NCBI RefSeq assembly: GCF_053078305.1
Contig: NZ_CP166879.1
Strand: one strand, 5' to 3'
DNA: 64,000 nt
Shown: one piece after another, positions 8,275 to 48,177 of the stretch
Layout of the letters: each line of letters starts with the position of its first letter
How positions within the stretch are numbered: position 1 is the stretch's first letter
Made by a program: the position numbers and the translations under genes
Notes under the pieces: generated by a model
The model's input: the letters and a program-made list of their open reading frames with translations, nothing else
What the model was told of the DNA's origin: nothing
Databases searched by the model: none

Positions 8275-8898
8275 ATGGAATGGATTGCCGATCCGTCTAT
8301 CTGGGCCGGGTTAATCACGCTGATTGTGATCGAACTGGTCCTCGGCATTGATAATCTGGTCTTTATTGCCATCCTCGCCGAAAAACTACCGCCGAAGCAG
8401 CGCGACCGCGCACGGGTTACCGGGCTGTTGCTGGCGATGTTAATGCGCCTGTTACTGCTGGCGTCAATCTCCTGGCTGGTCACCCTGACTCAACCGCTGT
8501 TCAGCTTCCGCTCGTTTACCTTTAGCGCCCGCGACTTAATCATGCTGTTTGGTGGTTTCTTCTTGTTGTTCAAAGCCACGATGGAGCTGAACGAACGGCT
8601 GGAAGGGAAAGACAGCAATAACCCCACGCAACGCAAAGGTGCGAAGTTCTGGGGGGTGGTGACACAAATTGTGGTACTGGACGCCATCTTCTCACTCGAC
8701 TCGGTGATTACAGCCGTCGGGATGGTCGACCATTTACTGGTCATGATGGCCGCCGTGGTTATCGCTATCAGCCTGATGTTGATGGCCAGCAAGCCGTTAA
8801 CGCAATTTGTTAACAGTCACCCGACCATCGTTATTCTCTGCTTAAGCTTCCTGTTGATGATTGGCTTTAGCCTGGTGGCAGAAGGTTTCGGCTTCGTG
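8275..8898 (+). pseudogene. yegH: yegH (TerC-family membrane protein) 5' fragment, interrupted by prophage left end
   Basis: ORF begins [18 protein letters not shown]... and carries only ~208 codons of a ~527-aa protein before reading into phage end and a stop at 8899-8901. Confidence 0.8.
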
Positions 8899-9075
8899 TA
8901 ACCAGGTGAATCATTTGATACCAACGAGGGTTTTAGTGAAAGGAGGTGAAATCACCTGTAAGATACTGAAATAAAACAGGTGATACCAATGCGAGCGCGG
9001 AAAGTCTATTTGATACCGATTGTGCAATAATTAGTCGTTTATTCTAAAATCGGCAACACTTTTGATACTACGGAT
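8897..9075 (+). repeat. prophage left end (attL-like) with transposase-binding-site repeats
   Basis: TTTGATACC at 8914 and 9009, TTTGATACT at 9061, GTGATACCA at 8979; spacing (about 17, 112, 164 bp from terminus) resembles Mu L1/L2/L3; terminus begins TGTA. Confidence 0.6.
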
Positions 9076-9168
9076 TGACGCTTAAAATGGTTTTAAAAAG
9101 GCTTAAAACGCTTTTCTCCAGATTGTCTTTAAAGGAGTGTACCACAGCACAAAATTTGCACCACTCCC

Positions 9169-9729
9169 TTACGCACTAGCCTTTTTCTGGGTTACATTTA
9201 AATGATTAACCTTAGCTTCACATTCTTCATAAATCTCTCTTGCTTCAGAATCTGACATATCCTTTAACCTTAAAGCAAGCTCTCGGCGAAAACCGCTAAG
9301 TGCATGTAATTCCTGAATATTATCATCCAATAAGATCGTTAGAAAATCAGCCCCCTTTCTGCCAAGCAATCGGGCTAATTCTAGTTGCTCATCGGTGCTG
9401 AGAGAGGACAGAATTGCCGTAATTGTTTGATTTGCATTATCTAAATTACCTGCATCGACAGTTGAACAACATGGAGTGCTTGGGGTATTTTCATCAGAAC
9501 CAAAAGCTAACCAATTTAAACTCACGTGCTCTTTATTTGATATAAGGCAAGCCATTTTAAAAGAGGGTTCTGTGCCTTTGTGTATGTAGTTATTTAAGGT
9601 TGATACAGGAACCCCCCAATCCTTTGCTGCTGCCCTTACACTCCGCGTCCCGATCAGGCTTAGTAAGCGGGCTTTAAAACTTTCTTTTCCTGGTGCATCA
9701 AAAGAAAAATTTCCATTCTCTTCAATCAT
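9169..9729 (-). CDS. Mu c-type lysogeny repressor
   Basis: 186 aa, leftward gene next to left end, divergent from ner; N-terminal DNA-binding region; position identical to Mu Repc. Confidence 0.75.
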   Translation of the reverse strand: MIEENGNFSFDAPGKESFKARLLSLIGTRSVRAAAKDWGVPVSTLNNYIHKGTEPSFKMACLISNKEHVSLNWLAFGSDENTPSTPCCSTVDAGNLDNANQTITAILSSLSTDEQLELARLLGRKGADFLTILLDDNIQELHALSGFRRELALRLKDMSDSEAREIYEECEAKVNHLNVTQKKASA

Positions 9730-9914
9730 TTTTTCTTTTCCTCATAACATATTGAAATAAAAAGAGATAACCAAATAAAACCCACTTCAGCCCACGGAGA
9801 CAAAAGAAAAAGCTATTTTTGCTTTACATGGACTACATTTGGATCAATACTTGTATCAAACTTGATAACAAAATTTAGTTATCAAATTTCGTAACTTTTT
9901 AGGATAGATGAATC
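9730..9914. promoter_or_regulatory. early operator / divergent promoter region between c and ner
   Basis: AT-rich 185-bp intergenic region between divergent repressor and ner genes, as in Mu; individual sites not resolved. Confidence 0.45.
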
Positions 9915-10145
9915 ATGGCGAGAAATGAAGTTAAGCCTGATTGGCATCCTCAAAGAATCTTGGGGGAAGTCAGAGCCAGAGAAGGAAGTATGAGGGCGCT
10001 GGCCCGTAAAGCTGGCGTAGGTCAGAACAACCTGTACAACGCGGTATACCGTCATGTTCCCAAGTATGAGGGGATTATTGCGGAATGCCTAGGTGTGCCA
10101 CCCGAGGAGATTTGGCCCAGCCGCTACATTCGTAAGGTCGCGTAA
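9915..10145 (+). CDS. ner: Ner-like DNA-binding protein
   Basis: 76 aa; first gene of early operon; HTH region LARKAGVGQNNLYNAVYR typical of the Ner/Nlp family. Confidence 0.8.
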   Translation: MARNEVKPDWHPQRILGEVRAREGSMRALARKAGVGQNNLYNAVYRHVPKYEGIIAECLGVPPEEIWPSRYIRKVA

Positions 10146-10147
10146 TT

Positions 10148-12235
10148 ATGTTTGCTTCAGTTAAAGAGCTGGTTGGATTACCGGGAATGCCGGGAACGGA
10201 GCAAGGCGTCCGCTATTCAATCAGGAAGTATGCAACCAGCGAAACCAGCAGACGCCGCCAGGAAGGCAGTAAAGGTTTTGAATACAGCATCGACTGTTTA
10301 CCTGAAGTGACGCAGCAGGCATTGCGTGAGCGCTACGCCCTGCAACTGATGACGCAAAAAGTCGATGAATCACCGGCTCCGGTGGTGACAAAGGCCAGAC
10401 GCTCGCCTGCCGTGGTTGATGCGGTGGAGGCATATCGCGGATCACCACAACTGATGGTTGAACGCCTTAATGCCCTGACTGAAAACCAGCGCCAGGTGGC
10501 TGATGCACGAATCGCGATCGTCAGCGAAGTGATGAAAGTCGCGCAACACCCCGGTTTCAGCTGTGCGAAAGCTATCCGGTTTATCGTTGACAACCTGGCA
10601 CGTTCGCAACTGGACGAGCGCATTGTGGCAATGGTTGAGACGGCGAACGCCAAAAAGGGAAACAGCCGTGCGTTGAGTGAAATAACGCTGAAACGCTGGA
10701 TTGCGGCCTTTAACAAGGCGCAGAACGCCGCTGAACGCCTGCTTTTACTGGCACCGGGTAAGCGCCAGGAAATAAAAGCCGAAGATATTAACTGGCTGCC
10801 CGAATTTCTGGCGCAGTATCGCCAGTCAAACGGCCGACCAATGACCGAGGCTTACGAGGATTTTGTCGCTGAATGGCAGCACCGGCACGCTGATGAGCCT
10901 TATATGCTCGATATCATGCCGTCTTATGACACCATTCGCCGCGCAATGAAGAAACTGCCGGAAGTGGTGAAACAAAAAGGCCGGGTGACCGGCAGTGAAT
11001 ACCGCCAGCTTGAGGGATTCACGCGCCGCGACTGGTCCAGAATGCCGGTGAATTATGTCTGGATTGGTGACGGTCACGGCATGAAGCTGAAATGCGCACA
11101 CCCGGTTCACGGTCGGCCATTTGCACCGGAAGTGACCTTTGTTATCGACGGTGGCACGCGCTTTGTGGTGGGCTGGAGCCTTGACCTGGCTGAAAATGTT
11201 TTCGCCGTAGCCGGTGCCATACAGCACGGCATTCGCCATCACGGCAAACCGTTTCTGTATTACTCGGATAACGGCTCCGGGGAAACCGCCGACATCCTGG
11301 ATAAGGAGGTTGTGGGGATACTGCCGCGACTGGGGATTAATCACCCGACCGGGATTGCCGGTAATCCGCAGGGACGAGGCATTATCGAACGGCTTAACCG
11401 CACATTACCGATGCGCATAGCCCGTAAATACCGCACCTATTTCGGGAAAGGTGCAGATCGCGAGACGTTACGCAAAACCAACCGCGATTTACGCTCGGCA
11501 TTTACTGCCCTGCAACAGGGCAAACGGCTGAACGTCCGGCAGCAGTCAGCGATGCGTGATTTACCGTCCTGGTCTGAACTGATTGATGCCATTCGTGACG
11601 GTGTTGAGTGGTACAACAACCGGCCGCACGATGAATTACCGGTGAAGCCGAACGGCAAGCATTACAGCCCGGCGGAGTTCAGAAAAAAACGCCTGGCGGA
11701 AGAGGACACGGAAATTGAATGGCTGTCCGATGTTGAGCTGCGGGATATGTTCCGGCCGATGGTGGAACGCCCTGTAAGACGCTGTGAAATACGCTGGCTG
11801 AATAATATTTACTACGCGCCCGAGCTGCGTGACGAGCATGGTCGTAAGGTGCTTATCAGCTATGACATTCATGATGCCGAACGAATTACCGTACGTCGCC
11901 TGGATGGCAGCGTGATTTGCGAGGCGGTATGGGACGGTAATAAACGCGAAGCCTTCCCGGTTAGTGCGGAATACTACAAACAGCAGCAACGCCTTAAAGG
12001 CATGCGTAAACGCGCAGAGGAAAAAATCCGTGATGCCGAGGATGAGGTTGTCAACGTGCTGGAGCACAAGCCGCAGGAGCCCTGGCTGGAAAACATCTAT
12101 CGCCCGGTAGGTAATACGGTGGCCGTTCAGCAACCGGTCGCTGACGATGAACCTGATGAAGAATACGAGCGTAATTTCCAGCGGGGATTGCAGTTGCTGG
12201 AAGCGAAATTAAAAGAAAATGACCCGCTGGCCTGA
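10148..12235 (+). CDS. MuA-like DDE transposase
   Basis: 695 aa; position after ner; central integrase-like core; size and order as MuA. Confidence 0.9.
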   Translation: MFASVKELVGLPGMPGTEQGVRYSIRKYATSETSRRRQEGSKGFEYSIDCLPEVTQQALRERYALQLMTQKVDESPAPVVTKARRSPAVVDAVEAYRGSPQLMVERLNALTENQRQVADARIAIVSEVMKVAQHPGFSCAKAIRFIVDNLARSQLDERIVAMVETANAKKGNSRALSEITLKRWIAAFNKAQNAAERLLLLAPGKRQEIKAEDINWLPEFLAQYRQSNGRPMTEAYEDFVAEWQHRHADEPYMLDIMPSYDTIRRAMKKLPEVVKQKGRVTGSEYRQLEGFTRRDWSRMPVNYVWIGDGHGMKLKCAHPVHGRPFAPEVTFVIDGGTRFVVGWSLDLAENVFAVAGAIQHGIRHHGKPFLYYSDNGSGETADILDKEVVGILPRLGINHPTGIAGNPQGRGIIERLNRTLPMRIARKYRTYFGKGADRETLRKTNRDLRSAFTALQQGKRLNVRQQSAMRDLPSWSELIDAIRDGVEWYNNRPHDELPVKPNGKHYSPAEFRKKRLAEEDTEIEWLSDVELRDMFRPMVERPVRRCEIRWLNNIYYAPELRDEHGRKVLISYDIHDAERITVRRLDGSVICEAVWDGNKREAFPVSAEYYKQQQRLKGMRKRAEEKIRDAEDEVVNVLEHKPQEPWLENIYRPVGNTVAVQQPVADDEPDEEYERNFQRGLQLLEAKLKENDPLA

Positions 12236-12306
12236 AATAAAAAAATAACCCGAGCGGCGACTCAGGTTATTTGATTAAACAAGGTATCAAATGAGAGGTT
12301 AATAAT

Positions 12307-13239
12307 ATGACTGATATTAACGATGTAATCAAGACCATTGATGAACTTATTGATGGCGGCGTACTGACGCAGTATGCCATCGCCAGAGAGGCGGGAATTT
12401 CCGACGGCACATTATCGGCTTTCCGTAAGGGAAAATATAAAGGCGATAACGCTGCTGTGGCTGCTTCCCTGCGTTCCTGGTATGAGAACTGGAATAAACA
12501 AAGCGCACTGCCGGAACCGCCGCAGTTTGTGGAAACGCAGACAGTCCAGGAGCTGCGCGCACTGTTTCAGGCGGTTCGTCTGATGGGCTGTATTAACGTT
12601 ATTGTGGGCGTACCGGGTGTGGGTAAAACGGCCACTGCCCGTAATTACTGCCAGGAGCAACCAAACACCTGGATGATCACCCTGTCACCCGCGCACTCCA
12701 GCGTCACGGAGTGTCTGCTGGAGCTGGCCGATGCGCTGGGGATTGATTACACCCGCGCGAACAAAGGGGCATTATCCCGCGCCATCCGCCGTCGCCTGAT
12801 GGGAACGCGTGGACTGGTGATTGTGGATGAGGCGGATCATCTTGGTATTGACGGTCTGGAGCAACTCCGGGCAATTCAGGACGCCACGGGGATCGGGATG
12901 GTGCTTATTGGTAACCCGCGCGGATTGTTTAAAGGTGGACGCCGCGCCTTTGATGATTTATCGCGCCTGTTCAGCCGTCTTGCCCGTACAAAACAACTTC
13001 GCAAGGCCAAAAAGGCGGATGTGCTGGCCATTGCCAGGGCATGGGGTATCAGTGGTGAGGCCGAGCTGGCCGTCATGCAGGCTATCGCTGAAAAGCCCGG
13101 TGCGTTACGTGTTCTGACACATACGCTTAACCAGGCGTGGCTCACAGCCAGCGGTGAAGGCGCGGCGCTGACAGAAAAACATATTAATGCGGCCTTTAAA
13201 GAGGTTTATACCAACCCTGAATTACTCTCACAGGTGTGA
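12307..13239 (+). CDS. MuB-like AAA+ ATPase, transposition target activator
   Basis: 310 aa; Walker A GVPGVGKT; Walker B VIVDEADHL; clear similarity to Mu B as recalled. Confidence 0.9.
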   Translation: MTDINDVIKTIDELIDGGVLTQYAIAREAGISDGTLSAFRKGKYKGDNAAVAASLRSWYENWNKQSALPEPPQFVETQTVQELRALFQAVRLMGCINVIVGVPGVGKTATARNYCQEQPNTWMITLSPAHSSVTECLLELADALGIDYTRANKGALSRAIRRRLMGTRGLVIVDEADHLGIDGLEQLRAIQDATGIGMVLIGNPRGLFKGGRRAFDDLSRLFSRLARTKQLRKAKKADVLAIARAWGISGEAELAVMQAIAEKPGALRVLTHTLNQAWLTASGEGAALTEKHINAAFKEVYTNPELLSQV

Positions 13240-13463
13240 TTATGGCGGTATTTAATATTCCTGATATTTACGGACGCTTTTACCTGGTTAATTTCGATAA
13301 CGTGAAGGTGATTTCACTGGCCGAAAATAAAGAATGTGGCGATTTACTTTTTGAATTTAATGACCGCACACGAATGGTGATATCTGCCGGACTTGATCGC
13401 GAAGGTGCGACAGACGTTTACAGCGGAATATGCCGTTCTGTTGGTGCGAAACAAGTCAGCTAA
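13236..13463 (+). CDS. small early protein (Kil position)
   Basis: 75-aa ORF overlapping B stop by 4 bp; same position and size as Mu kil; no motif confirmed. Confidence 0.4.
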   Translation: MIMAVFNIPDIYGRFYLVNFDNVKVISLAENKECGDLLFEFNDRTRMVISAGLDREGATDVYSGICRSVGAKQVS

Positions 13464-13730
13464 ATGAGGTGTTATATGAATATGCAATCCTGCGGTAACA
13501 AAATGAATTTATTCGACTCCCTGAACAGCGCGCGCCGTCTGACCGAACTTGCCGGTGCGGTACTGGAACGCAGTAAGCGCTATCCGCAACGTTTTGCACT
13601 GAAAACCACGCCGCCGGTAGGCAACGTGCAGGGAACCGGTGAAATTGAAATCACCATACAGACCAACGGCCTGCGCCGCCGTGTGAAGGCCACCCGCATC
13701 AGCGGCTGCACGGTTTACTGGGAGGTGTGA
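13464..13730 (+). CDS. early-region hypothetical protein
   Basis: 88-aa ORF tightly packed in early operon. Confidence 0.4.
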   Translation: MRCYMNMQSCGNKMNLFDSLNSARRLTELAGAVLERSKRYPQRFALKTTPPVGNVQGTGEIEITIQTNGLRRRVKATRISGCTVYWEV

Positions 13731-13731
13731 G

Positions 13732-14013
13732 GTGAAAAAAAATCTCATTGCATGGGCGTGGTCGAGTGGTCTTATTGAGTTTGGTTACGTCCTGCCGGAA
13801 GGTGCATTGCCGATAGTTGCCGGAAAGCCTGTCACGGTACGGCATGTGATTGAGGTTATGGCGCGTCATGGACGTGATGAACAGGAGCAGTTACTGGTTC
13901 CGGGGATACCGGAAGCGGTGACGGAGGAAGAAGCCTTTAATGCCATGATTCGGTTCTGCCGTGAGGTCAGACGCCGGGTCAGTTATCCAAACAGAACGAG
14001 GACCAGAGGATGA
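13732..14013 (+). CDS. early-region hypothetical protein
   Basis: 93-aa ORF, 2 bp after previous stop. Confidence 0.4.
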   Translation: MKKNLIAWAWSSGLIEFGYVLPEGALPIVAGKPVTVRHVIEVMARHGRDEQEQLLVPGIPEAVTEEEAFNAMIRFCREVRRRVSYPNRTRTRG

Positions 14014-14282
14014 GTAAAGTCGTACGCATTATTTTCGAATACAAGGAGCACGTTATCCATAAAAACGCTGATGGAACAGTGCGCATGGGGGTAAGTCTGG
14101 ACATACGTTCAACCGGGATAAAGCAGAAAGGTGATGGACCCGCCATGATTTTTGGAGTGGTTATGCTCGCGGAAAGCAGAGACTTTGCTGAACTTGTGGC
14201 AATGAAAGCCAGTGCGCTCATGAAAGATATGAGCATGCGTTCCGGGGTTATTAAAGGTAATGAATTTAATCAGCAGGGGTAA
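14010..14282 (+). CDS. early-region small protein, paralog 1 of tandem pair
   Basis: 90 aa; N-terminus MSKVVRIIFEYKEHVIHKNADG resembles next gene. Confidence 0.45.
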   Translation: MSKVVRIIFEYKEHVIHKNADGTVRMGVSLDIRSTGIKQKGDGPAMIFGVVMLAESRDFAELVAMKASALMKDMSMRSGVIKGNEFNQQG

Positions 14283-14286
14283 TTCC

Positions 14287-14580
14287 ATGAGCAAAGTACG
14301 CGTTATTTTTGAATTTAAGCATGTTTCGCATGACGAAAAACCGGCAGGTAATGACTGTGTTGAAGTGCATGAAAAGATTGGTGTGGATGTAAAAACAGAA
14401 CGTGATACGAATAACAGGCCGACGTCACTCTGTGACGTTTATGCAAGTATTCTCCAGTATCACAGTCCTGAAATTATTCAGTTTCTCTCAGCGGAATTTC
14501 AGGCATCTGTACAGGCTTTTGGGGCGGATGCCATCATTAAACGCCACCGCGTGCATAAAGCATCAGGCACACTGCAATAA
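14287..14580 (+). CDS. early-region small protein, paralog 2 of tandem pair
   Basis: 98 aa from internal Met; MSKVRVIFEFKHVSHDEKPAGN parallels previous ORF. Confidence 0.45.
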   Translation: MSKVRVIFEFKHVSHDEKPAGNDCVEVHEKIGVDVKTERDTNNRPTSLCDVYASILQYHSPEIIQFLSAEFQASVQAFGADAIIKRHRVHKASGTLQ

Positions 14581-14591
14581 GGAAAAACAAA

Positions 14592-15122
14592 ATGGCTAAA
14601 CGTGTTACAAAATTAAAGGCCGCAGCCGAGGCTGCACCGCAGACCCGCGAAGAAGTCAGCCGCGATATCCGTACCCTGGGCGATATTCAGCGAGAGGCGC
14701 TACGGCTGGAAACGGCGATGAATGATGAAGTGGCAGAAATCACCGCCCGTTATACGCCGCAGATTGAAAACCTTAAAAAAGAAATCAAAGTGCTTTTTAA
14801 GGGGATTCAGGACTGGTGCAAAACCAACCGCGATGAGCTGACGAACGGCGGCAAAACCAAAACAGTCAATCTGACCACCGGCACGGTGTCATGGCGGCTG
14901 GGAACGCCATCATGCAGCGTCAGCCGTGATGTGGAAGGTGTGATTGAAATGCTGCGCCGTATGGGGCTTGAGCGATTCATCCGCACGAAAGAGGAAGTGA
15001 ACAAGGAAGCGGTCCTGGCGGAGCCGGATGCGGTGAAAGGGATTGCCGGTATTAAGGTAAATAAAGGCGCTGAAAGTTTTTATGTCGAGCCTTTTGAACA
15101 GGACGCCGGACTGAATAAATAA
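14592..15122 (+). CDS. gam: Gam-like host-nuclease inhibitor (Ku-like DNA-end binding protein)
   Basis: 176 aa; strong similarity to Mu Gam as recalled (RLETAMNDEVAEITARY, NRDELTNGGKTKT, GLERFIRTKEEVNKEA). Confidence 0.85.
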   Translation: MAKRVTKLKAAAEAAPQTREEVSRDIRTLGDIQREALRLETAMNDEVAEITARYTPQIENLKKEIKVLFKGIQDWCKTNRDELTNGGKTKTVNLTTGTVSWRLGTPSCSVSRDVEGVIEMLRRMGLERFIRTKEEVNKEAVLAEPDAVKGIAGIKVNKGAESFYVEPFEQDAGLNK

Positions 15123-15219
15123 CACCACATTAAATCTTTAAATATCACATCGTTTTAATTATGGCGCTCGCGTCAGGGGACTGCCTGCGCCTGTAAACTG
15201 AAAATAAGGAACAGGAAAT

Positions 15220-15762
15220 ATGGCATATTTTTATTTCAAATTAGACCGTGTGCAGACAAATAAATATTTCACCAAATATCAACAGACTGTTTTACCGCTA
15301 CGCAACAGTATTCTTCGGGCATTACTGAAAAATACAGGCGCTGCCGGATTGCGCTTAAAGCCGTTCGCCATGGACAGAATCAGTGAGTTTTATTTTTCCG
15401 GTGCTCTGCCTGCGGGCTGGCGTAAGCGCGATGATGTGGCTTTTATCGGGGACGGACCGTGCTTTATTGCCAGACCTGATGAGTTATGCCCTGAAGGACC
15501 GGCGATTGCCGCAATGGTTGAAGCCGCTGAACGCGATTTAAGAAAGCGTCCTGATTTCCTTGTCTGGCTCTGTGAAAAGCTGGGGGTAATGAGAATCCCC
15601 TCCATGTTTAACATGGACTCCTGGTGGACCCCGTCACTCTCCCGTGATGCCCTGTGCGTGGTGTTTAAAGTAGGCGCTTATGGCAGGGAAATAAACGGGT
15701 GTATTCCTGAAGAATGCCAGGAAATTAAACATTCTGAATATGTGGCGCTGACGGAGGAATAA
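15220..15762 (+). CDS. early-region hypothetical protein
   Basis: 180-aa ORF. Confidence 0.4.
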   Translation: MAYFYFKLDRVQTNKYFTKYQQTVLPLRNSILRALLKNTGAAGLRLKPFAMDRISEFYFSGALPAGWRKRDDVAFIGDGPCFIARPDELCPEGPAIAAMVEAAERDLRKRPDFLVWLCEKLGVMRIPSMFNMDSWWTPSLSRDALCVVFKVGAYGREINGCIPEECQEIKHSEYVALTEE

Positions 15763-15765
15763 TTC

Positions 15766-16299
15766 ATGATTGATGCAAAAGTGCTTGAAGGGGTTAAAAA
15801 CTGGCTGAGTATTTACGGGCGTCTGACCTGCGGAGTTCTGGCTGAAAAAATGAATATGCCGCCATCCTCGATGGTTTATTTTCTGCGTGATGCGGTTGAT
15901 GCCGGGGTGCTGACGGAATGTAACGGTTTTTATGATATTCCGCGTCCCCGCCCGGTGCAGCCGGTTCGTCGCAAATGCAGCCAGGAGTCTGCGGCTGATG
16001 ATGTTCAGTGGTGCAGCTTCAGAAAATCCCTGCCGTGGATTGAGGGGCATGATATTCCGTCGATGGCGTGGGAATTTGCTCAGGGCATACTGACCTGTGA
16101 AACCGTTTATGTGGTGGCTGAAGTTGATGAGCAGGCCATGAAAGAAGGTGTACCCCAGTTTGTGATGGCGTATATCGACATACGCCTGGGTGTCATTATC
16201 TGCGGTTTAAGCGGCTGGAATATCACCGGACATGTTCTGCGTTACCTGATTGTTGACCGGACAGCGGCACCGGCCGCGATTTCTGCGGAGGTGGCGTAA
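15766..16299 (+). CDS. early-region hypothetical protein
   Basis: 177-aa ORF. Confidence 0.4.
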   Translation: MIDAKVLEGVKNWLSIYGRLTCGVLAEKMNMPPSSMVYFLRDAVDAGVLTECNGFYDIPRPRPVQPVRRKCSQESAADDVQWCSFRKSLPWIEGHDIPSMAWEFAQGILTCETVYVVAEVDEQAMKEGVPQFVMAYIDIRLGVIICGLSGWNITGHVLRYLIVDRTAAPAAISAEVA

Positions 16300-16814
16300 T
16301 GTTCTTTAAAACATCGAACCCTGCCGCGCTGGCCGCGTGGCAAAAATATCAGCAGGACTGCCAGACGGTAAAAGATGAGGCGAAACGCCTTGAGGCCGTG
16401 CTGAATGTTGCGTGCCGGTCGGTATTTGAATTCAGTATCAGTGGTTTTTGTTTTAAGGGACTGCGTTTTACGGAGGACAAATATCCTTTTCATCGTGATT
16501 TATGGCGAAAACCAACTGCGTCGAATGGCTGGAGCTGCACACCGCGCACATCACGTATTCCCAAAGCCCTGCGCGTTGCCTCTGACGAACTTAACAGTCT
16601 GTGGCGTGAATATTCGCCCGTCACGTATGCCAGAACCGATGCACTGTTGTTCTGGCTGGGCATTGATTTCTCGGCAATCCTGTTTGGCCCTGTGGAGTGG
16701 TTCTGCGTTGACGATGTGATTTACCTTCAGTGCGGCGTAAAACCCGCAAAACAGAAAATGACCGAAATTCTGTCTGATGAGTTTTATGCTGCTGAAAAGC
16801 GAGTCAGGGGGTGA
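16299..16814 (+). CDS. early-region hypothetical protein
   Basis: 171-aa ORF. Confidence 0.4.
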   Translation: MFFKTSNPAALAAWQKYQQDCQTVKDEAKRLEAVLNVACRSVFEFSISGFCFKGLRFTEDKYPFHRDLWRKPTASNGWSCTPRTSRIPKALRVASDELNSLWREYSPVTYARTDALLFWLGIDFSAILFGPVEWFCVDDVIYLQCGVKPAKQKMTEILSDEFYAAEKRVRG

Positions 16815-16817
16815 TGC

Positions 16818-17369: not shown

Positions 17370-17677
17370 TAACGACATTATTTGTTGAATCAGACGAGCC
17401 TCTGGTATGTGCCGCCGGAATGTCGGTTTGTGGCGGAACGCTGACCGGTGTTTATTTCGGGGATTTGCGCGGTTATCCCTGGCATTCACTGGATGACGCA
17501 TTTCCGCCTGATATGGAGGCAGTCGTGCTGATTGTTCAGTATGGTGACCAACAGGAACTGCGCATCGGCCATATGGGGTATGAAGGCTTTTTTATTGATG
17601 AAGAAACCGGAGCCTGCCTTGAAGATGAGGACGGACAGGTGACGCACTGGTGCCATATTTCAGCTTTACCGGAATGA
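17366..17677 (+). CDS. early-region hypothetical protein
   Basis: 103-aa ORF overlapping previous stop by 4 bp. Confidence 0.4.
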   Translation: MITTLFVESDEPLVCAAGMSVCGGTLTGVYFGDLRGYPWHSLDDAFPPDMEAVVLIVQYGDQQELRIGHMGYEGFFIDEETGACLEDEDGQVTHWCHISALPE

Positions 17678-18042: not shown

Positions 18043-18054
18043 ACAGGCAGGTGA

Positions 18055-19372: not shown

Positions 19373-19378
19373 CCCCAA

Positions 19379-40655: not shown

Positions 40656-41206
40656 CCCTGACCCCGCATCAGCGCGCCCTGTTGCAGTTGCTGCCTGACG
40701 GGCTGGCATGGGATAAGCGGCCGTCATCCGTTCTTGCAGCTTTGTGCCTGGGTCTCAGTCATTCCACGGAGCGTGTTTCCTGGACCGGTAACCAGATGCT
40801 GGCAGAACGTTTTCCTGATTCATCCCGTCTGCTACTGGAAGACTGGGAGCGTTATCTGGGGTTACCGGAATGTGATATGACCGGCGCAACCATTCAGGAG
40901 CGTCAGCGTTATGCCGGGAATAAATACCGGATGAAACCCTCTCTTAACCGTGAATTTTATATCCGGTTTGCGGCAGAGTTTGGTTATGAAATAGATATCC
41001 AGCCATCACCGGAATCACAATGGATCAGTATTGTGACAGTGAAGACGGCGGTGGGATACCGTCACATGAATGTGCTGGATGATATTCTCACGCCGCTGCG
41101 TATTTATGAAGGCGGTGCGCTGGAATGTATTCTGAACCGTTATAAGCCTGCATGGCAGACGTTTATTTACGTGTATGCAAACAGCCATGAAGAGGAGACT
41201 ATTTAA
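40646..41206 (+). CDS. baseplate / tail protein (Mu gp48)
   Basis: 186 aa. Confidence 0.65.
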   Translation: MAVTLTPHQRALLQLLPDGLAWDKRPSSVLAALCLGLSHSTERVSWTGNQMLAERFPDSSRLLLEDWERYLGLPECDMTGATIQERQRYAGNKYRMKPSLNREFYIRFAAEFGYEIDIQPSPESQWISIVTVKTAVGYRHMNVLDDILTPLRIYEGGALECILNRYKPAWQTFIYVYANSHEEETI

Positions 41207-42117
41207 TGTTTCATGTTGATAATAATTCCGGCGTGGCGAATATGCCTGCGCTGGCACCGGCGCAGAGTAATACCACCACCTGGTTTACCGAAGGTGACGG
41301 ACAAAAAGGTATCAGCTGGATTGGTCAGGACTGGCTGAATATTCTCCAGGCCGAACTGCTGAATATTCTGGCTGAAGCCAGTATTCAGCCGGATAAGGCG
41401 CAGTTAAACCAGCTTACGCTGTCCATTAAAGCCATTATCGCTGCGAATGCCTTTTCCCGGAAAAACAACCTGAAAGAAATTGCTGATGCCGGTGCGGAAG
41501 CCCAGCGTCTTGCCCGTGGTTATCTTGGTCTTGGGGCGCTTGCCACAAAAAACAGTCTTGGTCCCGGTGACGTTAATGCTCTGGCGAAGGATCAGAACCT
41601 TGCCGACCTGGAGAATGCGGGAACCGCCCGTAATAATCTGGATGTTTACAGCAAAAGCGAAGGTGATAACCGTTACCTGCGCAGGGAGCAGAACGGCGCA
41701 GACATTCCGGATAAAGGCGCTTTTATCGATAACGTCGGTTTACGGGAAACGGTAAATAAGGCTGCTGATGCCCTGCCATCGGGTGGAACCGCCGTGGCAG
41801 CAAACAGACTCGCCACCCCAAGAAATATTAATGGCGTTCCTTTTGACGGAACGCAGGATATCAACATCACGTCAGGAATGACGCAGTCAACCGCAGATGG
41901 CCGGTATGTACAGAATGTTCAGCTTGGAGCACAGAGCTATCATTCACCCGGAGGCAATGAAATATCATGGAATTACAGCGCACCTTCCGGTTGTATGCTT
42001 TCCGGTATTAACGTGCAGGAAACCGGCTCCCGGTCTGCGGACAATATCGGTGGGGTCTATTATCGCCCGGTTCAGATTTATATTAATAATGCCTGGAGAA
42101 CGGTAAGTTCAGTGTAA
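41206..42117 (+). CDS. tail fiber protein S; C-terminal ~120 codons lie inside the invertible segment (Sv in current orientation)
   Basis: 303 aa; C-terminus homologous to the minus-strand alternative segment (YYRPVQIYINNAWRTVSS vs YYRPVQFLIDGSWKTASS). Confidence 0.8.
   Translation: MFHVDNNSGVANMPALAPAQSNTTTWFTEGDGQKGISWIGQDWLNILQAELLNILAEASIQPDKAQLNQLTLSIKAIIAANAFSRKNNLKEIADAGAEAQRLARGYLGLGALATKNSLGPGDVNALAKDQNLADLENAGTARNNLDVYSKSEGDNRYLRREQNGADIPDKGAFIDNVGLRETVNKAADALPSGGTAVAANRLATPRNINGVPFDGTQDINITSGMTQSTADGRYVQNVQLGAQSYHSPGGNEISWNYSAPSGCMLSGINVQETGSRSADNIGGVYYRPVQIYINNAWRTVSSV
41735..41888 (+). repeat. left inverted repeat of invertible segment
   Basis: TCGGTTTACGGG ... CCAAGAAATATTAATGG ... 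ACGCAGTC matches reverse complement of 42957-43110. Confidence 0.7.
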
Positions 42118-42151
42118 ACCACAGAAAAGGGTGCTGAATGCACCCTCTGAA

Positions 42152-42673
42152 TTATTCCGGTTTTTCCGGCCAGGGAATCGCCTGGTAATGCCCCTCACTG
42201 GCAATATCATTAAAGTGCATTTCTTTAAGCTGTCGGATATACGCCATCCAGCGCGTCAGCTGTAATTTATTTTCATCGCTAATCATGTCCAGTTTTAATT
42301 CTGTTTTCCAGTCATCCACGGTTTCGTTGGCTTCCTGGAGCAGCGATGAGCGACGCTTTTCAGCAACCGTCTTCCAGTTTACCGGCACCTTTGATATCAG
42401 GCCATCAGAAAACTGCCAGTTACCGTCAATATTCACACCTTCCGGCAGTTCGTCCACTTCAACAACAGTAAAACCTGCCGGATATAAAGCAGAGACATCT
42501 TCAGCAACAGAGCAGATAATACCCGTTACAGGCGAAATACAGAGTTTGTATTTCTTTGTGAAAAGCGGGATAGATTCATAAAAATCCCTTCCGTCCTCAC
42601 TCTGGAAATACTGAACATCCTCACCATAGGGTTTGTGTTCCGGGTAATATCGTTTTACGTTAATAAGCTCCAT
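42152..42673 (-). CDS. tail fiber assembly chaperone (Tfa/U-like), inverted relative to S in current orientation
   Basis: ~174 aa from MELINVKRYYPE; typical Tfa N-terminus; lies inside invertible segment. Confidence 0.75.
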   Translation of the reverse strand: MELINVKRYYPEHKPYGEDVQYFQSEDGRDFYESIPLFTKKYKLCISPVTGIICSVAEDVSALYPAGFTVVEVDELPEGVNIDGNWQFSDGLISKVPVNWKTVAEKRRSSLLQEANETVDDWKTELKLDMISDENKLQLTRWMAYIRQLKEMHFNDIASEGHYQAIPWPEKPE

Positions 42674-42752
42674 TATTTCACCTTGTTTTTGTTGAAAAGA
42701 CAAAATCATCATATATTTATTCAGATAATCTGTTTTTTGAACTACTGCACTT

Positions 42753-43095
42753 TTATGCGCTGGAAGCTGTTTTCCACGAACCATCTATCAGAAACTGAAC
42801 AGGTCGATAATATGCGGTTACCGTTGCATTACCATCACCAGCGACATCAAGCCCTGTAAGTACGCATCCGTCAGGAACTTCAAAAATATTATATTGCATT
42901 CCAATCGTTGACCTTGAACCTCTTCGAATGCTTTGAACATAACGTGAGTCAGCCACAGACTGCGTCATCCCCGATGTAATATTTATATCCTGCGTTCCGT
43001 CAAATGGGACACCATTAATATTTCTTGGAGTGGCGAGTTTATTCGCTGCAACAGCCGTTCCGTTCGATGGCAGGGCATTCGCGGCCCTGTTTACA
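42753..43095 (-). CDS. alternative tail-fiber C-terminal segment (Sv'-like), promoterless in current orientation
   Basis: minus-strand frame open from the right gix site; homologous to S C-terminus (MTQSVADSRYVQ..., YYRPVQFLIDGSWKTASSA). Confidence 0.65.
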
Positions 43096-43110
43096 GTATC
43101 CCGTAAACCG
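42957..43110 (-). repeat. right inverted repeat of invertible segment
   Basis: reverse complement matches 41735-41888 with scattered mismatches. Confidence 0.7.
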
Positions 43111-43177
43111 AGGTTTCAGGGATGCCGTATATCTGCTTTAAAAGGCCTTTCCACCTCTTTTTAAGGAAGGTAAATAC

Positions 43178-43738
43178 ATGCTGATTGGCTATATACGCGT
43201 ATCAACAAATGACCAGAACACCGGTTTACAAAGAAATGCGCTGGAATGTGCAGGATGTGAGCAGATTTTTGAAGACAAAATGAGTGGTAAAACGACACAG
43301 CGGCCGGGACTGAAGCGGGCACTGAAGAAACTAAAACCCGGTGACACACTGATGGTCTGGAAACTGGACAGGCTGGGGCGCAGTATGCGCCACCTTGTTG
43401 CGCTGACAGATGAATTACAGCAACAGGGGATAAATTTTCGTAGTCTTACTGACAACATTGATACGTCAACCCCCATGGGGCGCTTCTTTTTTCACATAAT
43501 GGGTGCGCTGGCAGAAATGGAGCGTGAATTAATTGTCGAACGGACACGGGCTGGTCTTGCAGCTGCCCGTGAAAGGGGACGAACCGGCGGCAGACCCCGT
43601 CGTCTCACGCAGGAACAATACGAGCAGGTCGGGCGTTTACTGGCCGGGGGTGTCAGTCGAAGACAGGTGGCACTTATTTTTGATATCGGCCTTTCAACCC
43701 TTTATCGTTATTATCCTGCGAGCGTTTCGGAAAAATAA
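43178..43738 (+). CDS. gin: Gin/Hin/Pin-family serine DNA invertase
   Basis: 186 aa; catalytic-Ser N-terminus MLIGYIRVSTNDQN; C-terminal HTH; adjacent to invertible segment. Confidence 0.9.
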   Translation: MLIGYIRVSTNDQNTGLQRNALECAGCEQIFEDKMSGKTTQRPGLKRALKKLKPGDTLMVWKLDRLGRSMRHLVALTDELQQQGINFRSLTDNIDTSTPMGRFFFHIMGALAEMERELIVERTRAGLAAARERGRTGGRPRRLTQEQYEQVGRLLAGGVSRRQVALIFDIGLSTLYRYYPASVSEK

Positions 43739-43828
43739 GACGCTCCCTTTGTTGGGCCTTTACTGAATTAACGCAAAATGGCGTTTATCGGTCTGTGGAT
43801 ATGATAATTCTGTTTATTCAGGAACAGG

Positions 43829-45886
43829 ATGAATATTATGACGTCCAAATGGGTTCAACTATCATCAATGCCCGGAAACTTTACCGTTAAAGTTTCCGGT
43901 GGTACAGCGGCATTTCTTGAGGCTCCCTTTCCTCCTGCTGAAACGAAAGGAGGAATGACATTTGCTGACTGTCTCATCAGTTTTAATACACAGGATTGCC
44001 TGTGGGTAAGGCCAGTATCCGGTGATCCGAACGTGGAAATTACCGGAGCGGGTATTGGTGCTGTCATTCCGTTAAGTGCTGATGTTGCCGGTACTACTGA
44101 ACCGTCAGACTGGGATAATGCAGAAACACATACCCGTCCGGCAGGAAATGAAACGGCTTCCAGCTCCCCTTCCTGGTATTACGTGATTGTTATAGCCGGC
44201 CAGTCCAATGCTTCATCTTATGGTGAAGGGTTGCCCCTTCCGGATTCTTATGATCGTCCTGATCCACGTATTATGCAGCTGGCACGCAGGAATACACAAA
44301 CCCCCGGAGGTATTCCCTGCAAATACAATGAAATCATTCCAGCAGATCACTGCCTTCATGATGTTCAGAATATGAGTCTGCTGAACCATCCAAAAGCAGA
44401 CCTGAAAAAAGGGCAGTATGGTTGTGTGGGGCAGGGACTTCATATTGCGAAAAAAGTATTACCGGTGATTCCTGCTGATGCCGGGATTTTACTGGTTCCC
44501 TGTGCCCGTGGCGGCTCTGCTTTTACAACCGGCGCAGTTGGCTCATTCGATCCGGCAAGTGGTGCAGCCGAGGCGTCACTACGCTGGGGAGTGGATACCC
44601 CACTGTATCAGGATCTTGTCAGTCGAACTAAAGCGGCACTTGAGGCGAATCCAAAGAATGTGCTGTTATCTGTCGTATGGATTCAGGGGGAAGGAGACCT
44701 TAAAGCGACCCCGGCCCAGCATGGTGCCCAGTTTACTGCGATGGTGAAAAAATTCCGTGCGGATCTTGGGGCTTTCTCCGGTCAGTGTATTGGTGGTTCA
44801 TCAGACAGTGTGCCGTGGTTATGTGGTGACACAACCTATGACTGGAAAGAGAAGAACCCGGCGGCATATGAAACCATTTATAGCGGATATAAAAACCGGG
44901 CTTCCGAGAACATTCACTTTGTTCCACTGATGCACGATGAGTTCGGTAATAAAACCGCGACCAACCTGCCGGAGCACGACCCGGATATCGCTTCTGCCGG
45001 GTATTATGGTGCGGAATCACGGGGAGATGGCAACTGGACAACAGCATCCAGGGCAACCCATTTTAGCTCCTGGGCGCGCCGTTTTCTGGTCTCAGATCGT
45101 TTTGCATCAGCAATTCTTAAATATGCAGGTCTGACCTCTGCATTTATTGCCGGTGTGGCCCCTGATGGTGAAACCCTGCCTCAGCCCGCGCCGGGTGGGA
45201 AACCGGAAGCGCCGACAGGTAGTCAGCCAGGAGGCAGTGAGTCCCCCCATCCGACATCCCCGTCACTCCGTACGCTGCTTTCACTTAAAGCATCAGCAGG
45301 AGAAGCCCCGGCTCAGGGCTGGAAAATTACAGATGGTACAATCCAGCTGACGGACGAAGGTAAAGCGTTGACCGTATCCAAACAAAGCGGAAAAACCTGG
45401 ACGCTTACCCATGGAACTGATGCAGCCGGTGAACTTCTGAAGCATGGTGGTCAGTTGACCTGTAAATTCCGTCTGTCAGGTGAAGTAAAAGAAGGCCAGT
45501 TTGCTCTGGGTATTTACCTCCACACCGATACGGTCCCGGAAGGTGTAACCATGAGTGGTACAGGCACACCGTTCCTGATGGCGTATTATCTCCAGACAAC
45601 AGGCGGCCAGTTAAATCTGATGCACCATAAAACAGGGGGGAATACGAAACTGGGATCATTTGGAGCCTACAATAACCAGTGGCATACACTTGTCCTGAAG
45701 TTTACGGCGGGAAGTGCCCAGGTAACGCCTGTGCTGGATGGCACTCCGGGCCAGGCATTCCAGATGGTGAAAGATGCACTTTCCCCTGCCAAAGATACGC
45801 TGACACTGACAGATGTCACCAAAGGGGCAACTTATGGCGTGTCTTTTGAGAGCGTTGTCCTTGAGGTTAATACCCCTGCGGCATAA
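43829..45886 (+). CDS. cargo protein with central SGNH / sialate-O-acetylesterase-like domain and C-terminal beta-sandwich domain
   Basis: 685 aa; GQSNASSYGE motif after a hydrophobic strand, typical of SASA/DUF303 esterases; Pro/Gly-rich linker PQPAPGGKPEAPTGSQPGGSESP; Mu has no gene here. Confidence 0.6.
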   Translation: MNIMTSKWVQLSSMPGNFTVKVSGGTAAFLEAPFPPAETKGGMTFADCLISFNTQDCLWVRPVSGDPNVEITGAGIGAVIPLSADVAGTTEPSDWDNAETHTRPAGNETASSSPSWYYVIVIAGQSNASSYGEGLPLPDSYDRPDPRIMQLARRNTQTPGGIPCKYNEIIPADHCLHDVQNMSLLNHPKADLKKGQYGCVGQGLHIAKKVLPVIPADAGILLVPCARGGSAFTTGAVGSFDPASGAAEASLRWGVDTPLYQDLVSRTKAALEANPKNVLLSVVWIQGEGDLKATPAQHGAQFTAMVKKFRADLGAFSGQCIGGSSDSVPWLCGDTTYDWKEKNPAAYETIYSGYKNRASENIHFVPLMHDEFGNKTATNLPEHDPDIASAGYYGAESRGDGNWTTASRATHFSSWARRFLVSDRFASAILKYAGLTSAFIAGVAPDGETLPQPAPGGKPEAPTGSQPGGSESPHPTSPSLRTLLSLKASAGEAPAQGWKITDGTIQLTDEGKALTVSKQSGKTWTLTHGTDAAGELLKHGGQLTCKFRLSGEVKEGQFALGIYLHTDTVPEGVTMSGTGTPFLMAYYLQTTGGQLNLMHHKTGGNTKLGSFGAYNNQWHTLVLKFTAGSAQVTPVLDGTPGQAFQMVKDALSPAKDTLTLTDVTKGATYGVSFESVVLEVNTPAA

Positions 45887-45943
45887 TCGTGACGGCCGGG
45901 AATTTATCCGGCTGTAACATCAGTTAATAAGAGTGAGGCTTAT

Positions 45944-46123
45944 ATGACATATATAAACGTCTGCCTGCTGTATTTCTGCACGGTGGTTTGTTGTCTGTTG
46001 CTTGTCAGCGGTGGTTATAAAATTATTCGCAATTATTTTCGAAATAAAATTGATGCAGCTGCCGAGGAAAAGATAAAAAGCGGTGCTGTAATGCCGCAGC
46101 CGAAAGACTCCGGTCAGATTTAA
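45944..46123 (+). CDS. small membrane protein (59 aa)
   Basis: ATG with GAGG Shine-Dalgarno 6 nt upstream; hydrophobic Cys-rich N-terminus CLLYFCTVVCCLLLVSGG; below the 60-aa ORF-track cutoff. Confidence 0.4.
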   Translation: MTYINVCLLYFCTVVCCLLLVSGGYKIIRNYFRNKIDAAAEEKIKSGAVMPQPKDSGQI

Positions 46124-46158
46124 TTTTTTGTGAACCAGAAAAGGAAAGGAGAATATTC

Positions 46159-46404
46159 ATGCCAGAGATTAAAGGCACGGTTACTGAAGAGCTTGTCAAA
46201 CAGGCACTTTATTCTGAAGAAGTGAACCGCGTGCTGAAGGCGCAGGTTCGCAAGGATTTTGAGGCACAAATCGACGCATATGTTGATGAAGTGCTGGCCC
46301 GAATGGTTGGTCGTTCTCCGGCTGAAAACAGCACGGAAAATGAGCCTCAACCCGTAGAGCAACCAGAGCCGGTTCAACCCGGAACTGACGGTACTATGAT
46401 GTAA
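46159..46404 (+). CDS. small acidic hypothetical protein
   Basis: 81 aa; AGGAG Shine-Dalgarno upstream; acidic Pro/Glu-rich C-terminus. Confidence 0.45.
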   Translation: MPEIKGTVTEELVKQALYSEEVNRVLKAQVRKDFEAQIDAYVDEVLARMVGRSPAENSTENEPQPVEQPEPVQPGTDGTMM

Positions 46405-46442
46405 CAATACCGACCGGCAGGTTTCCCTGCCGGGTGAATTTG

Positions 46443-46613
46443 TTAATGCACGTTTTGTGTATTTTCCCTCCGGGGAGAACAGGCAGGACATATCAGCATC
46501 CTGAAACAGGAAGCATTTTTTGGTTTGTATGTCTTGCCATTTTGAGATCGAGAACGGCGATAGATGAGCTGTAAGGGAGTCTTACAGGCAGGGCAAACAG
46601 GCTCTTTATCCAT
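46443..46613 (-). CDS. small zinc-ribbon protein (two CPAC motifs)
   Basis: 56 aa from internal Met (MDKEPVCPACKTPL...ICPACSPRR); AAGGAGA Shine-Dalgarno 8 nt upstream on minus strand. Confidence 0.45.
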   Translation of the reverse strand: MDKEPVCPACKTPLQLIYRRSRSQNGKTYKPKNASCFRMLICPACSPRRENTQNVH

Positions 46614-46721
46614 GATAAAGATCTCCTTTTTATGCATCTCTGCTTTACAGGAGACCGGGGAATATCATAGGATACGCCACGAGCTCGAAGTAAAGCATTG
46701 ATGCAAGTTTTTACAGATTGA

Positions 46722-46756
46722 CCCAGCATAGTTCCAGCTATGCTGGGTTTCCCTTT
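46722..46756 (+). terminator. rho-independent terminator-like hairpin (or palindromic operator)
   Basis: perfect 10-bp inverted repeat CCCAGCATAG-TTCCAG-CTATGCTGGG followed by TTTCCCTTTTA. Confidence 0.5.
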
Positions 46757-46757
46757 T

Positions 46758-47019
46758 ATGTAGTATCCTGTTGATTTGAAACATACTACATATACGCGCG
46801 ATCCTACCTTCACTGTATAAAAAGTCAATAAAATGATCATTTTATGATCGTTTTCACCACCTAACTCTTCGTTTCTTTAAGTAAATAATCACCGCCCTGA
46901 ATCATTGTTGATGACTTTTAAATCTATTTGTTGTATCAATTAAACAAATCGAATCGATCGTTTTTGTCGATCGATTGCATGAGAAAGGCATCAACAACAA
47001 AGCAGGAGGTTATGCGGCC
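46758..47019 (+). promoter_or_regulatory. com-mom control region with dyad symmetries and Dam GATC cluster
   Basis: ATGTAGTAT-N16-ATACTACAT dyad (46758-46791); palindrome AAATGATCATTT (46831-46842); GATC at 46800, 46835, 46846, 46956, 46969; two TCGATCG motifs 13 bp apart ~50-65 bp upstream of com. Confidence 0.5.
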
Positions 47020-47220
47020 ATGTATCGAAACATACGGTGCCGACACTGCAATAAGCTACTGGCACGGGCCAGTTTCAGTTATCTGGAAGTAAAATGTCCG
47101 CGCTGTAAAACCCTCAATCAAATCACATCTCCGAGCGCCACAGAGCACCCCACATACACAAGGAAATCCTGTCGTGGGGAACAGAAAGCAAGTCACATCC
47201 CGTATCATCAGCACGCCTGA
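47020..47220 (+). CDS. com: Com zinc-finger translational activator of mom
   Basis: 67 aa; [10 protein letters not shown]...[12 protein letters not shown] parallels Mu Com as recalled; AGGAGG Shine-Dalgarno upstream; overlaps mom start. Confidence 0.8.
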
Positions 47221-47911
47221 ACTTATTCGCTATAACGACAATATCGTTGGTTATGGCTCCCGTGAGTTGCGGGTTGAGACAATAAGTTGCTGGCTGGCCA
47301 GACTGGTTATCGTCAATAAACATTACAGCCACCGTTTCGTAAATAATTCCTACCTTCATCTGGGTATATTTTCAGAACGGGAACTTGTTGGCGTAATGCA
47401 ATGGGGTTACGCCCTTAACCCAAACAGTGGTGCACGCGTCGTAACGGGTACGCAGAACCGAGAATATATGGAGCTTAACCGGCTATGGATGCATGACTGT
47501 ATGCCGAGAAACTCCGAATCAAGGGCAATCAGTTACGCGCTCAAGCTAATCAGGCAGCTTTATCCGCAGGTACAGTGGGTTCAGTCGTTTGCAGATGAGC
47601 GTTGTGGCTGTCTTGGTGTCGTGTATCAGGCAAGCAATTTTGATTATGTAGGCAGCCATGAATCAACATTCTATGAACTTGATGGCGAGTGGTATCACGA
47701 GATTTGCAGGAGTGCCATTAAACGAGGCGGACAACGAGGTGAACATCTGAGGGCTAATATCGACAGAGCCAGTGTGCATAAGTTCCGACAGTTTCGTTAC
47801 ATCCGGTTTCTGAACAAGAGGGCCAGAAAACGCCTCAACACAAAGCTATTCAAAGTCCAGCCTTACCCAAAACCACAAACAGTTAAAACTGGTTTGAAAG
47901 AGAGTGAATGA
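47174..47911 (+). CDS. mom: Mom DNA-modification enzyme (adenine N6 modification, anti-restriction)
   Basis: 245 aa; last prophage gene, overlapped by com as in Mu; family assignment from position and com linkage. Confidence 0.7.
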
Positions 47912-47957
47912 GCGCTTAAAAACTCATTCTAAAACTCAAAAGAAAAGCGCCGATTTA

Positions 47958-48039
47958 GTATCAAATAAGTTGCGTATCGGCGTTTTTCAGCGGTATCAAA
48001 TGAAATGCAAATCGGTATCAAAAAAATCGCCGCGCTATA
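47958..48039 (+). repeat. prophage right end (attR-like) with three transposase-binding-site repeats
   Basis: AGTATCAAA (47958), GGTATCAAA (47992), GGTATCAAA (48014): inverted copies of the left-end motif, clustered like Mu R1-R3; terminus placed where ftnB reading frame diverges. Confidence 0.6.
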
Positions 48040-48177
48040 CTGGGCGCGAAGGAAAGTGGCGGTGCCGTTCAGACTCTGTTCAGAACACCAGTTACTCAGG
48101 TGAAGGTAGAGATTGGATGCGTAAAACTCGCGGTTCATTTGAGAGTTGAGTTTGAGAAGCATTCCAGCGGTTGCCAT
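48040..48177 (-). pseudogene. ftnB: ftnB (ferritin-like protein) 5' fragment, truncated by prophage right end
   Basis: minus-strand ORF begins [46 protein letters not shown] (ferritin-like N-terminus) then runs into phage end sequence. Confidence 0.7.

Follow-up and report, generated by a model that had tools for sequence, protein, structure and literature searches.

A hybrid Sp18-type Mu-like prophage joining yegH and ftnB in Escherichia coli and a likely inversion between two resident prophages

Introduction

Homologous recombination between prophages is a documented source of large chromosomal inversions in Escherichia coli O157 (bioRxiv 10.1101/2020.12.02.407981; PMC6379469). In the cases reported for Shiga toxin-producing E. 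coli (STEC) and O157, each breakpoint is marked by one of two homologous prophages in inverted orientation, the prophages exchange their flanks and turn into hybrids, and isomers may coexist (Iguchi et al. 2006 as cited in PMC6379469; bioRxiv 10.1101/2020.12.02.407981); the prophages in these published cases are mainly lambdoid, sit at att sites and are often placed symmetrically about the terminus. Here we describe a stretch of 64,000 nucleotides (the window) from contig NZ_CP166879.1 of RefSeq assembly GCF_053078305.1, in which one Mu-like transposable prophage joins the 5′ part of yegH to the 5′ part of ftnB. This locus resembles the O157 cases in the inverted homologous prophages, the probable exchange of flanks, the hybrid make-up and the possible coexistence of isomers. 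Unlike them, it involves Mu-like transposable phages lodged inside genes, and the likely inversion lies within one replichore.

Mu itself provides a second precedent, as Mu-promoted inversions by intramolecular replicative transposition belong to classical Mu genetics; that route requires two identical copies of the phage. The closest described relatives of the window phage are Sp18 of O157:H7 Sakai and the Sp18-like phages of STEC, which have the same gene order, insert at random sites (even inside other prophages) and occur in several copies per genome. The inserted phages of CC119 STEC, for example, are Sp18-like, and each STEC genome holds 1-3 copies of such phages at loci that vary (PMC10132054). 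Compared with these phages, the window copy is distinct in being a hybrid of two resident variants.

Results

Junctions of the prophage with yegH and ftnB

The prophage extends over 39,143 bp (8897-48039), from TGTAACCAGG at its left end to ...GCCGCGCTATA at its right end. Its limits were set by the ~5,420 complete E. coli genomes that match the flanks only up to 8897 or only from 48040, and by genomes with the phage at other sites, which match from 8897 inward. The original prediction, made from the sequence of the window, had placed the 5′ part of yegH on the left and that of ftnB on the right, facing one prophage at an inversion breakpoint, and matches of the flanks confirmed this layout: the two flanks derive from two separate loci in opposite orientation, and the breakpoints coincide exactly with the ends of the repeated element. 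As also predicted, the 3′ parts of yegH and ftnB are both absent from the window. The yegH fragment is 99.7% identical to yegH of strain GDSC2227PM.

The distance of ~150 kb that the original prediction gave for the two loci in K-12, with the araF-tar block inverted relative to the wca block in the window, proved equally correct. In K-12 MG1655, ftnB (1986925-1987428) and yegH (2137902-2139485) are both on the plus strand, and the equivalents of the two breakpoints, 1,987,062 and 2,138,523, are 151.5 kb apart on the same strand. The araFGH and wza/wzb/wzc/wcaA genes are all on the minus strand in K-12 and on opposite strands in the window. Strains ET350, ECNB21-M121 and JX21CE8 show the same relation as K-12. 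Neither window junction is spanned in any of the 5,426 complete RefSeq E. coli genomes. The GC skew changes sign over the prophage, from -0.020 in the left flank to +0.053 in the right flank, which fits a recent inversion of one flank. We rejected the skew as a test for misassembly, since it shows the ancestral orientation whether or not the assembly is correct.

Both cut genes stay open reading frames (ORFs) that are closed by phage sequence. Native yegH reads on as GTC ATT; in the window the phage tip supplies G-TAA and gives GTG-TAA, which closes a 208-amino-acid ORF (8275-8901) encoding a truncated YegH, a TerC-domain fragment. On the other side, the ftnB frame continues into the right end of the phage to give an ORF of 82 amino acids (47929-48177), 36 codons of which are phage-encoded; the 2014 draft of strain 48 described below includes this fusion among its annotated proteins. 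Two exact look-ups of proteins at the cut sites were set aside. That of the 208-amino-acid truncated YegH returned only wild-type contigs that end at the same codon (GTC, not GTG-TAA) and was uninformative, and that of a 117-amino-acid FtnB-3′ ORF returned frameshifted ftnB alleles in error-prone assemblies, not a junction.

A second, inverted prophage in the same strain

A pattern consisting of the reverse complement of ftnB-3′, a few bases and the left tip of the phage matched one IMG/VR provirus, which an exact-protein look-up placed in GCA_000736735.1, the 2014 PacBio draft of E. coli strain 48. This strain is a subAB2-3 STEC from roe deer (PMC5323612). The two junctions of the window gave no match in the IMG/VR scans. 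Three contigs of the draft bear on the window. In JPQG01000003.1, wzb-wza-yegH5′ is joined to a left end, with 0 differences to window 6299-26814 (20.5 kb). In JPQG01000004.1, araF-ftnB5′ is joined to a right end, and the sequence is identical to window 58177-40164 except for one indel. In JPQG01000010.1, tyrP-yecH-ftnA-yecJ-ftnB3′ leads into a Mu-like left end, and the contig ends before the phage does. We refer to the phage next to yegH-5′ at its left end as phage A and to that in ftnB as phage B. Because the ftnB-3′ and ftnB-5′ flanks share the bases CTGG, which fits the 4-bp target duplication of the family (see below), phage B began as a normal single insertion. The single indel of JPQG01000004.1 is an extra base at window 40695, 531 nt from the contig end, that frameshifts Gp48; it is probably a consensus error of the contig end and not a real difference.

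A closed chromosome of 5,941,328 bp, which seems to be the one the window comes from, alone carries both the window Gp48 (YBJ05308.1) and the 685-amino-acid form of the esterase (YBJ05313.1). We read its prophage copies from exact-sequence protein cluster look-ups and accession numbering. The window MuF is encoded twice (YBJ05057, YBJ05292), as is the DNA-circularisation protein (YBJ05045, YBJ05304), and the two copies lie in opposite gene order with their left ends inward and ~180 protein genes between them, compared with ~160 between ftnB and yegH in K-12. In one copy, the window prophage, the A-type MuA (05266) and an A-specific protein (05274) come before the right-arm alleles of the window. 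The other has the B-type MuA (05081) and B-specific proteins (05074, 05072), without the window alleles of Gp48 and the esterase.

Hybrid make-up of the window prophage

The left arm of the window prophage is that of phage A, and it is either 92-97% identical to phage B or cannot be aligned with it: identity is 93% over the terminal 177 bp, 96.9% in the transposase regions (with transposases of 695 and 696 amino acids) and 92-97% in the early genes that follow, and the immunity regions are unalignable. From 17424 to 26300, by contrast with this arm, the window and JPQG01000010.1 show no substitutions over 8.9 kb and differ in single-base indels only, which are typical of an unpolished contig end. 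We infer that the identical block reaches to ~40164 (~22.7 kb), since JPQG01000003.1 carries window-identical DNA-circularisation (KFD76086) and Gp45 (KFD76084) proteins up to 39.1 kb, JPQG01000004.1 stops at 40164, and the Gp48 and esterase alleles beyond this point are copy-specific.

The right-arm alleles of Gp48 and the esterase occur once each in the closed chromosome, and in the draft a 672-amino-acid form of the esterase (KFD75022.1) and the 82-amino-acid ftnB-fusion ORF are recorded only on JPQG01000004.1. Exact look-ups of the 204-amino-acid Gp45 and the 186-amino-acid Gp48 missed the draft owing to a different annotated start (Gp45) and the contig-end indel (Gp48). Since its left arm matches JPQG01000003.1 and differs from phage B, while its right-arm alleles are recorded only on JPQG01000004.1, the window prophage is a hybrid in which a shared block links the left arm of phage A to the right arm of phage B. 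For the same reason that the esterase and the ftnB-fusion ORF are found on JPQG01000004.1 alone, we rejected the reading that JPQG01000003.1 equals the window throughout. The window prophage (A-left with B-right) and the other copy (B-left without the B-right alleles) are the reciprocal hybrids expected of a crossover.

Phages A and B are 3-8% divergent in their left arms yet identical over many kb of late genes, which suggests gene conversion or earlier exchanges between resident phages as the source of the late-gene identity. Strain 48 carries at least four Sp18-like insertions. Besides those in yegH and ftnB, one lies inside a lambdoid prophage, with its left end beside head genes, its right end beside tail genes and the duplication TGCC, and a fourth lies beside yciO near the trp operon, with its right end by yciO-trpH-trpEDC, presumably in yciQ. 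Together these prophages show three different left arms and at least three types of right arm, and most draft contigs break inside them.

Family membership, ends and target duplication

The window phage has a MuA-type transposase and a MuB ATPase beside a repressor/ner pair at its left end, and a Mu-type late region with mor, terminase, portal, MuF, sheath/tube, baseplate, a Gin-invertible fibre segment and com/mom. Other genomes show these ends beside >30 different flanks, so that insertion occurs at many unrelated sites and not at one att site. Comparisons with relatives used the first 24.9 kb of the phage. The closest matches (94-96% identity, 86-94% coverage) are the "inserted Mu-like phage" in Stx phages of CC119 STEC, LC727881 and LC727895, and the early region of the window phage reaches at best ~98% identity among all sequences retrieved. 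Nucleotide similarity to Mu covers 5% of this region at 73.5% identity, and D108 covers 3%.

Like Mu and D108, the phage has its genes in the order c-ner-A-B-gam-mor-lys-late genes-gin-com-mom, and it has in common with them a DDE transposase with its MuB partner, a TG left tip and repeated, putative end-binding motifs. It differs from Mu in its right tip, which is TA (...CTATA) rather than CA, in a target duplication of 4 bp rather than 5 bp, and in the addition of an esterase-DUF1378-DUF826 module between gin and com. It is not Mu proper (Muvirus), as it shows neither the 5-bp duplication and TG...CA termini nor genome-wide similarity. Each end contains three TTTGATAC[CT] motifs, at 8914, 9009 and 9061 on the left and at 47965, 48000 and 48022 on the right. 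Those on the right are 75, 40 and 18 nt from the tip, and the outermost motif is exactly 18 nt in from either tip. The motifs are probably transposase-binding sites.

An exact 4-bp target duplication was found in all nine matched end pairs of the Sp18-type family (AGCT, TTAC, AACA, TGCC, CTGG, TGGA, AGCA, TTTT and CACG), and a 5-bp repeat in none. The pairs came from Z1825 (O157), JNE141411, 2014C-3307, FORC_028, MDP9-27, 88-19539, one IMG genome and two insertions in strain 48. We rejected a duplication of 5 bp, and likewise ends moved by one base, as only the 4-bp reading fits all nine pairs. The Sp18-type family would therefore, on the evidence of these end pairs, use a strand-transfer stagger of 4 bp and not the canonical 5 bp; our literature search found no report of the 4-bp duplication or of the TA right tip for this family. 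Across the window prophage the flanking bases differ. The original prediction had noted this for 5-mers (CTTCG and CTGGG) and concluded that there is no target-site duplication; the assumed length of 5 bp was wrong, but the conclusion stands, since the 4-mers TTCG and CTGG also differ, and the two ends of the window prophage accordingly do not come from one insertion event.

Gene content of the prophage and its surroundings

The features of the window are listed in Table 1. PHROGs matches follow the order of Mu, with a c-type repressor, Ner, a MuA-type transposase, MuB, Gam, Mor, the large terminase, the Gin invertase, Com and Mom, and Pfam domains in loci of identical or nearly identical sequence contribute portal, MuF, protease, major head protein, sheath, tube, tape measure and baseplate. 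The arms of the invertible tail-fibre segment are 182 nt long and form an imperfect inverted repeat with 79% complementarity; in another copy of the same strain the segment has the reverse orientation. The trio of esterase, DUF1378 and DUF826 genes between gin and com/mom is present in all relatives retrieved, and in a retrieved Stx prophage the same trio adjoins stx and lysis genes. An exact-protein look-up of Mom returned 6,017 blocks; Mom and the repressor are too common to single out one strain.

In the left flank, positions 1-8896 contain a short dispersed repeat, since each E. coli genome has a median of 29 matches to them. It is probably a repetitive extragenic palindromic (REP)-type repeat and may lie in the wza-yegH spacer (7618-8274).

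Table 1 Position of the prophage, its parts and the neighbouring genes in the window
Feature	Position	Strand	Remarks
wcaD/wcaC/wcaB/wcaA-wzc-wzb-wza colanic-acid genes	35..7617	-	K-12 forward orientation; edge of the ftnB-yegH interval; from ORFs, annotated matches, Pfam of identical loci and K-12 layout
yegH 5′ fragment	8275..8896	+	codons 1-207 and one base (first 622 nt)
TTCG beside left end	8893..8896	+	expected target duplication of the original yegH insertion; no match at right flank
Sp18-type Mu-like transposable prophage, apparently intact	8897..48039	+	left end TGTAACC, right end GCGCTATA
Left arm A, immunity and early region	8897..17423	+	specific to the yegH prophage; 100% identical to JPQG01000003.1
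c-type repressor	9169..9729	-	phrog_3037, E 1e-46
Ner-like regulator	9915..10145	+	phrog_769; HTH_35 in identical loci
MuA-type DDE transposase, 695 amino acids, KFD76124.1 / YBJ05266.1	10148..12235	+	phrog_310, E 2e-211; Pfam HTH_Tnp_Mu_1, Mu-transpos_C
MuB-type transposition ATPase	12307..13239	+	phrog_296; Phage-MuB_C
Block common to the ftnB prophage (late regulation, lysis, head, tail)	17424..40164	+	presumed crossover tract
Right arm B: Gp48, tail fibre, invertible segment, gin, esterase, com, mom	40165..48039	+	identical to the end of JPQG01000004.1, there on ftnB 5′
Gin-invertible tail-fibre segment	41731..43115		arms 41731-41912 and 42934-43115
Gin-type serine DNA invertase	43178..43738	+	phrog_125, E 6e-95
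NanS-like sialate O-acetylesterase (SASA, DUF6645)	43829..45886	+	followed by DUF1378 (45944-46123) and DUF826 (46159-46404)
com and mom (DNA modification)	47020..47911	+	phrog_13819, phrog_1384
CTGG	48040..48043	+	4-bp duplication of the ftnB insertion; also found just before the phage B left end on the ftnB-3′ side
ftnB 5′ fragment	48177-48040	-	codons 1-46, 138 nt; 100% identity to reference ftnB
araFGH-otsBA-uspC-flhDC-motAB-cheAW-tar block	48974..63296	+	K-12 reverse orientation

Discussion

The window is likely to record a real recombinational inversion between two independent prophage insertions, possibly as one of two interconverting isomers. In the mechanism that we propose, several Sp18-type prophages would have been acquired by strain 48 (or a clonal isolate of it) through independent transpositions, phage A inserting in yegH with its left end beside yegH-5′ and phage B inserting in ftnB with its right end beside ftnB-5′ and the 4-bp duplication CTGG. 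The two would have been inverted relative to each other, with their left ends facing, different over the left 8.5 kb and the right 8 kb and identical over the ~22.7-kb block of late genes. A reciprocal crossover in this block, by host RecA-type homologous recombination, would have inverted the ftnB-yegH interval (151.5 kb in K-12 terms; ~180 protein genes here) and would in the same event have swapped the phage arms. The product in the window would be yegH-5′ - A left arm - shared block - B right arm - ftnB-5′. Its reciprocal counterpart would read ftnB-3′ - B left arm - shared block - A right arm - yegH-3′ and would lie outside the window, ~180 genes to the left; at its right junction ...GCGCTATA would be followed by TTCG-TCATTCCGAAAGG, the start of yegH-3′.

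An inversion between two inverted Mu copies had been one of the two routes offered by the original prediction, which expected a second copy flanked by yegH-3′ and ftnB-3′. Two inverted Mu-like prophages are indeed present, but they belong to two different Sp18-like phages whose immunity regions differ and whose early genes are 3-8% divergent, and the window phage is distant from Mu. The expected second copy has been recovered in part, as an inverted copy ~180 genes away and as the junction of ftnB-3′ with a left end in JPQG01000010.1.

Several observations weigh against an inversion. The junction of a right end with yegH-3′, the other side of the expected copy, was not found in the IMG/VR scan or in the other searchable collections. 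All four junctions of phage ends with their flanks are the same in the inverted and the non-inverted state, and for this reason only molecules that span the ~22.7-kb identical block tell the two states apart. Finally, JPQG01000003.1, which carries the A left arm, has no record of the window Gp48, the esterase or the ftnB-fusion ORF; the draft links the A left arm to another right arm, and the draft and the closed assembly therefore disagree.

It is possible, and we put this forward tentatively, that the arrangement is not fixed and that the culture holds both isomers, which would interconvert by recombination, each assembly having caught one of them. The draft and the complete assembly represent essentially one strain (0 differences in 20.5 kb, and identical strain-specific phage proteins) and link the arms differently, and prophage-mediated rearrangements within a culture have been described for O157 (bioRxiv 10.1101/2020.12.02.407981). 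However, an arbitrary path in the draft explains the disagreement equally well. With the same reserve, the ftnB-yegH interval might be a reversible switch between two intact Sp18-like phages of different immunity, each flip reversing ~150-180 kb within one replichore, including the colanic-acid genes, and swapping the right-end module.

It is unlikely, in our judgement, that the arrangement is an assembly artefact, with a complete phage A in yegH, a complete phage B in ftnB, no inversion, and an assembler that took the wrong exit from the identical block. The identical tract is at least 8.9 kb where it was directly compared and probably 22.7 kb, and four related prophages in one genome make for a difficult assembly. 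Three draft contigs break in the shared region: JPQG01000004.1 ends at window 40164 and JPQG01000010.1 at 26300, and JPQG01000005.1 begins at the equivalent of 34902. Two assemblies of one strain also disagree, as JPQG01000003.1 joins the A left arm to a right arm without the window alleles of Gp48 and the esterase. Yet the draft path runs through a block that its reads could hardly span and is no more trustworthy than that of the newer assembly, the closed chromosome belongs to a recent accession series of a type usually built from reads that would span 23 kb, and recombination is to be expected biologically between perfect inverted repeats of ~23 kb that lie 150 kb from each other.

The second route offered by the original prediction, intramolecular replicative transposition (the Shapiro pathway), in which one prophage attacks a second site and in one step duplicates the phage and inverts the interval, yields exactly the topology of ends and flanks seen here (two 5′ fragments on one copy, and the 4 bp of the target by both new junctions) and the phage encodes MuA and MuB, but the pathway needs identical copies and is refuted, leaving it a negligible probability, because the two copies, with the divergent termini, immunity regions, transposases and early genes given above, are not replicas of one element.

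Taken as a recombinational inversion between two independent insertions, the locus is a fresh instance of a well-documented phenomenon; the mechanism is textbook and would not surprise specialists. Its only mildly unusual points are the 4-bp duplication of the family and the reciprocal exchange of arms between two different transposable phages. For those who work with such genomes there is a practical warning, in that the order of >100 kb of chromosome hinges on an assembler crossing ~23 kb of identical sequence in the presence of four related prophages.

For the host, the rearrangement inactivates yegH and ftnB, and an inversion, if true, gives one side of the breakpoint an orientation relative to replication contrary to the ancestral one. 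If the interval does act as a reversible switch, each flip would swap the right-end module (Gp48, tail fibre, Gin, esterase, Com/Mom) and so make new viable chimeras. For the family, transposable Mu-like prophages may serve as portable homology: they land at random in genes, after which two of them can flip the DNA that separates them and reshuffle phage modules.

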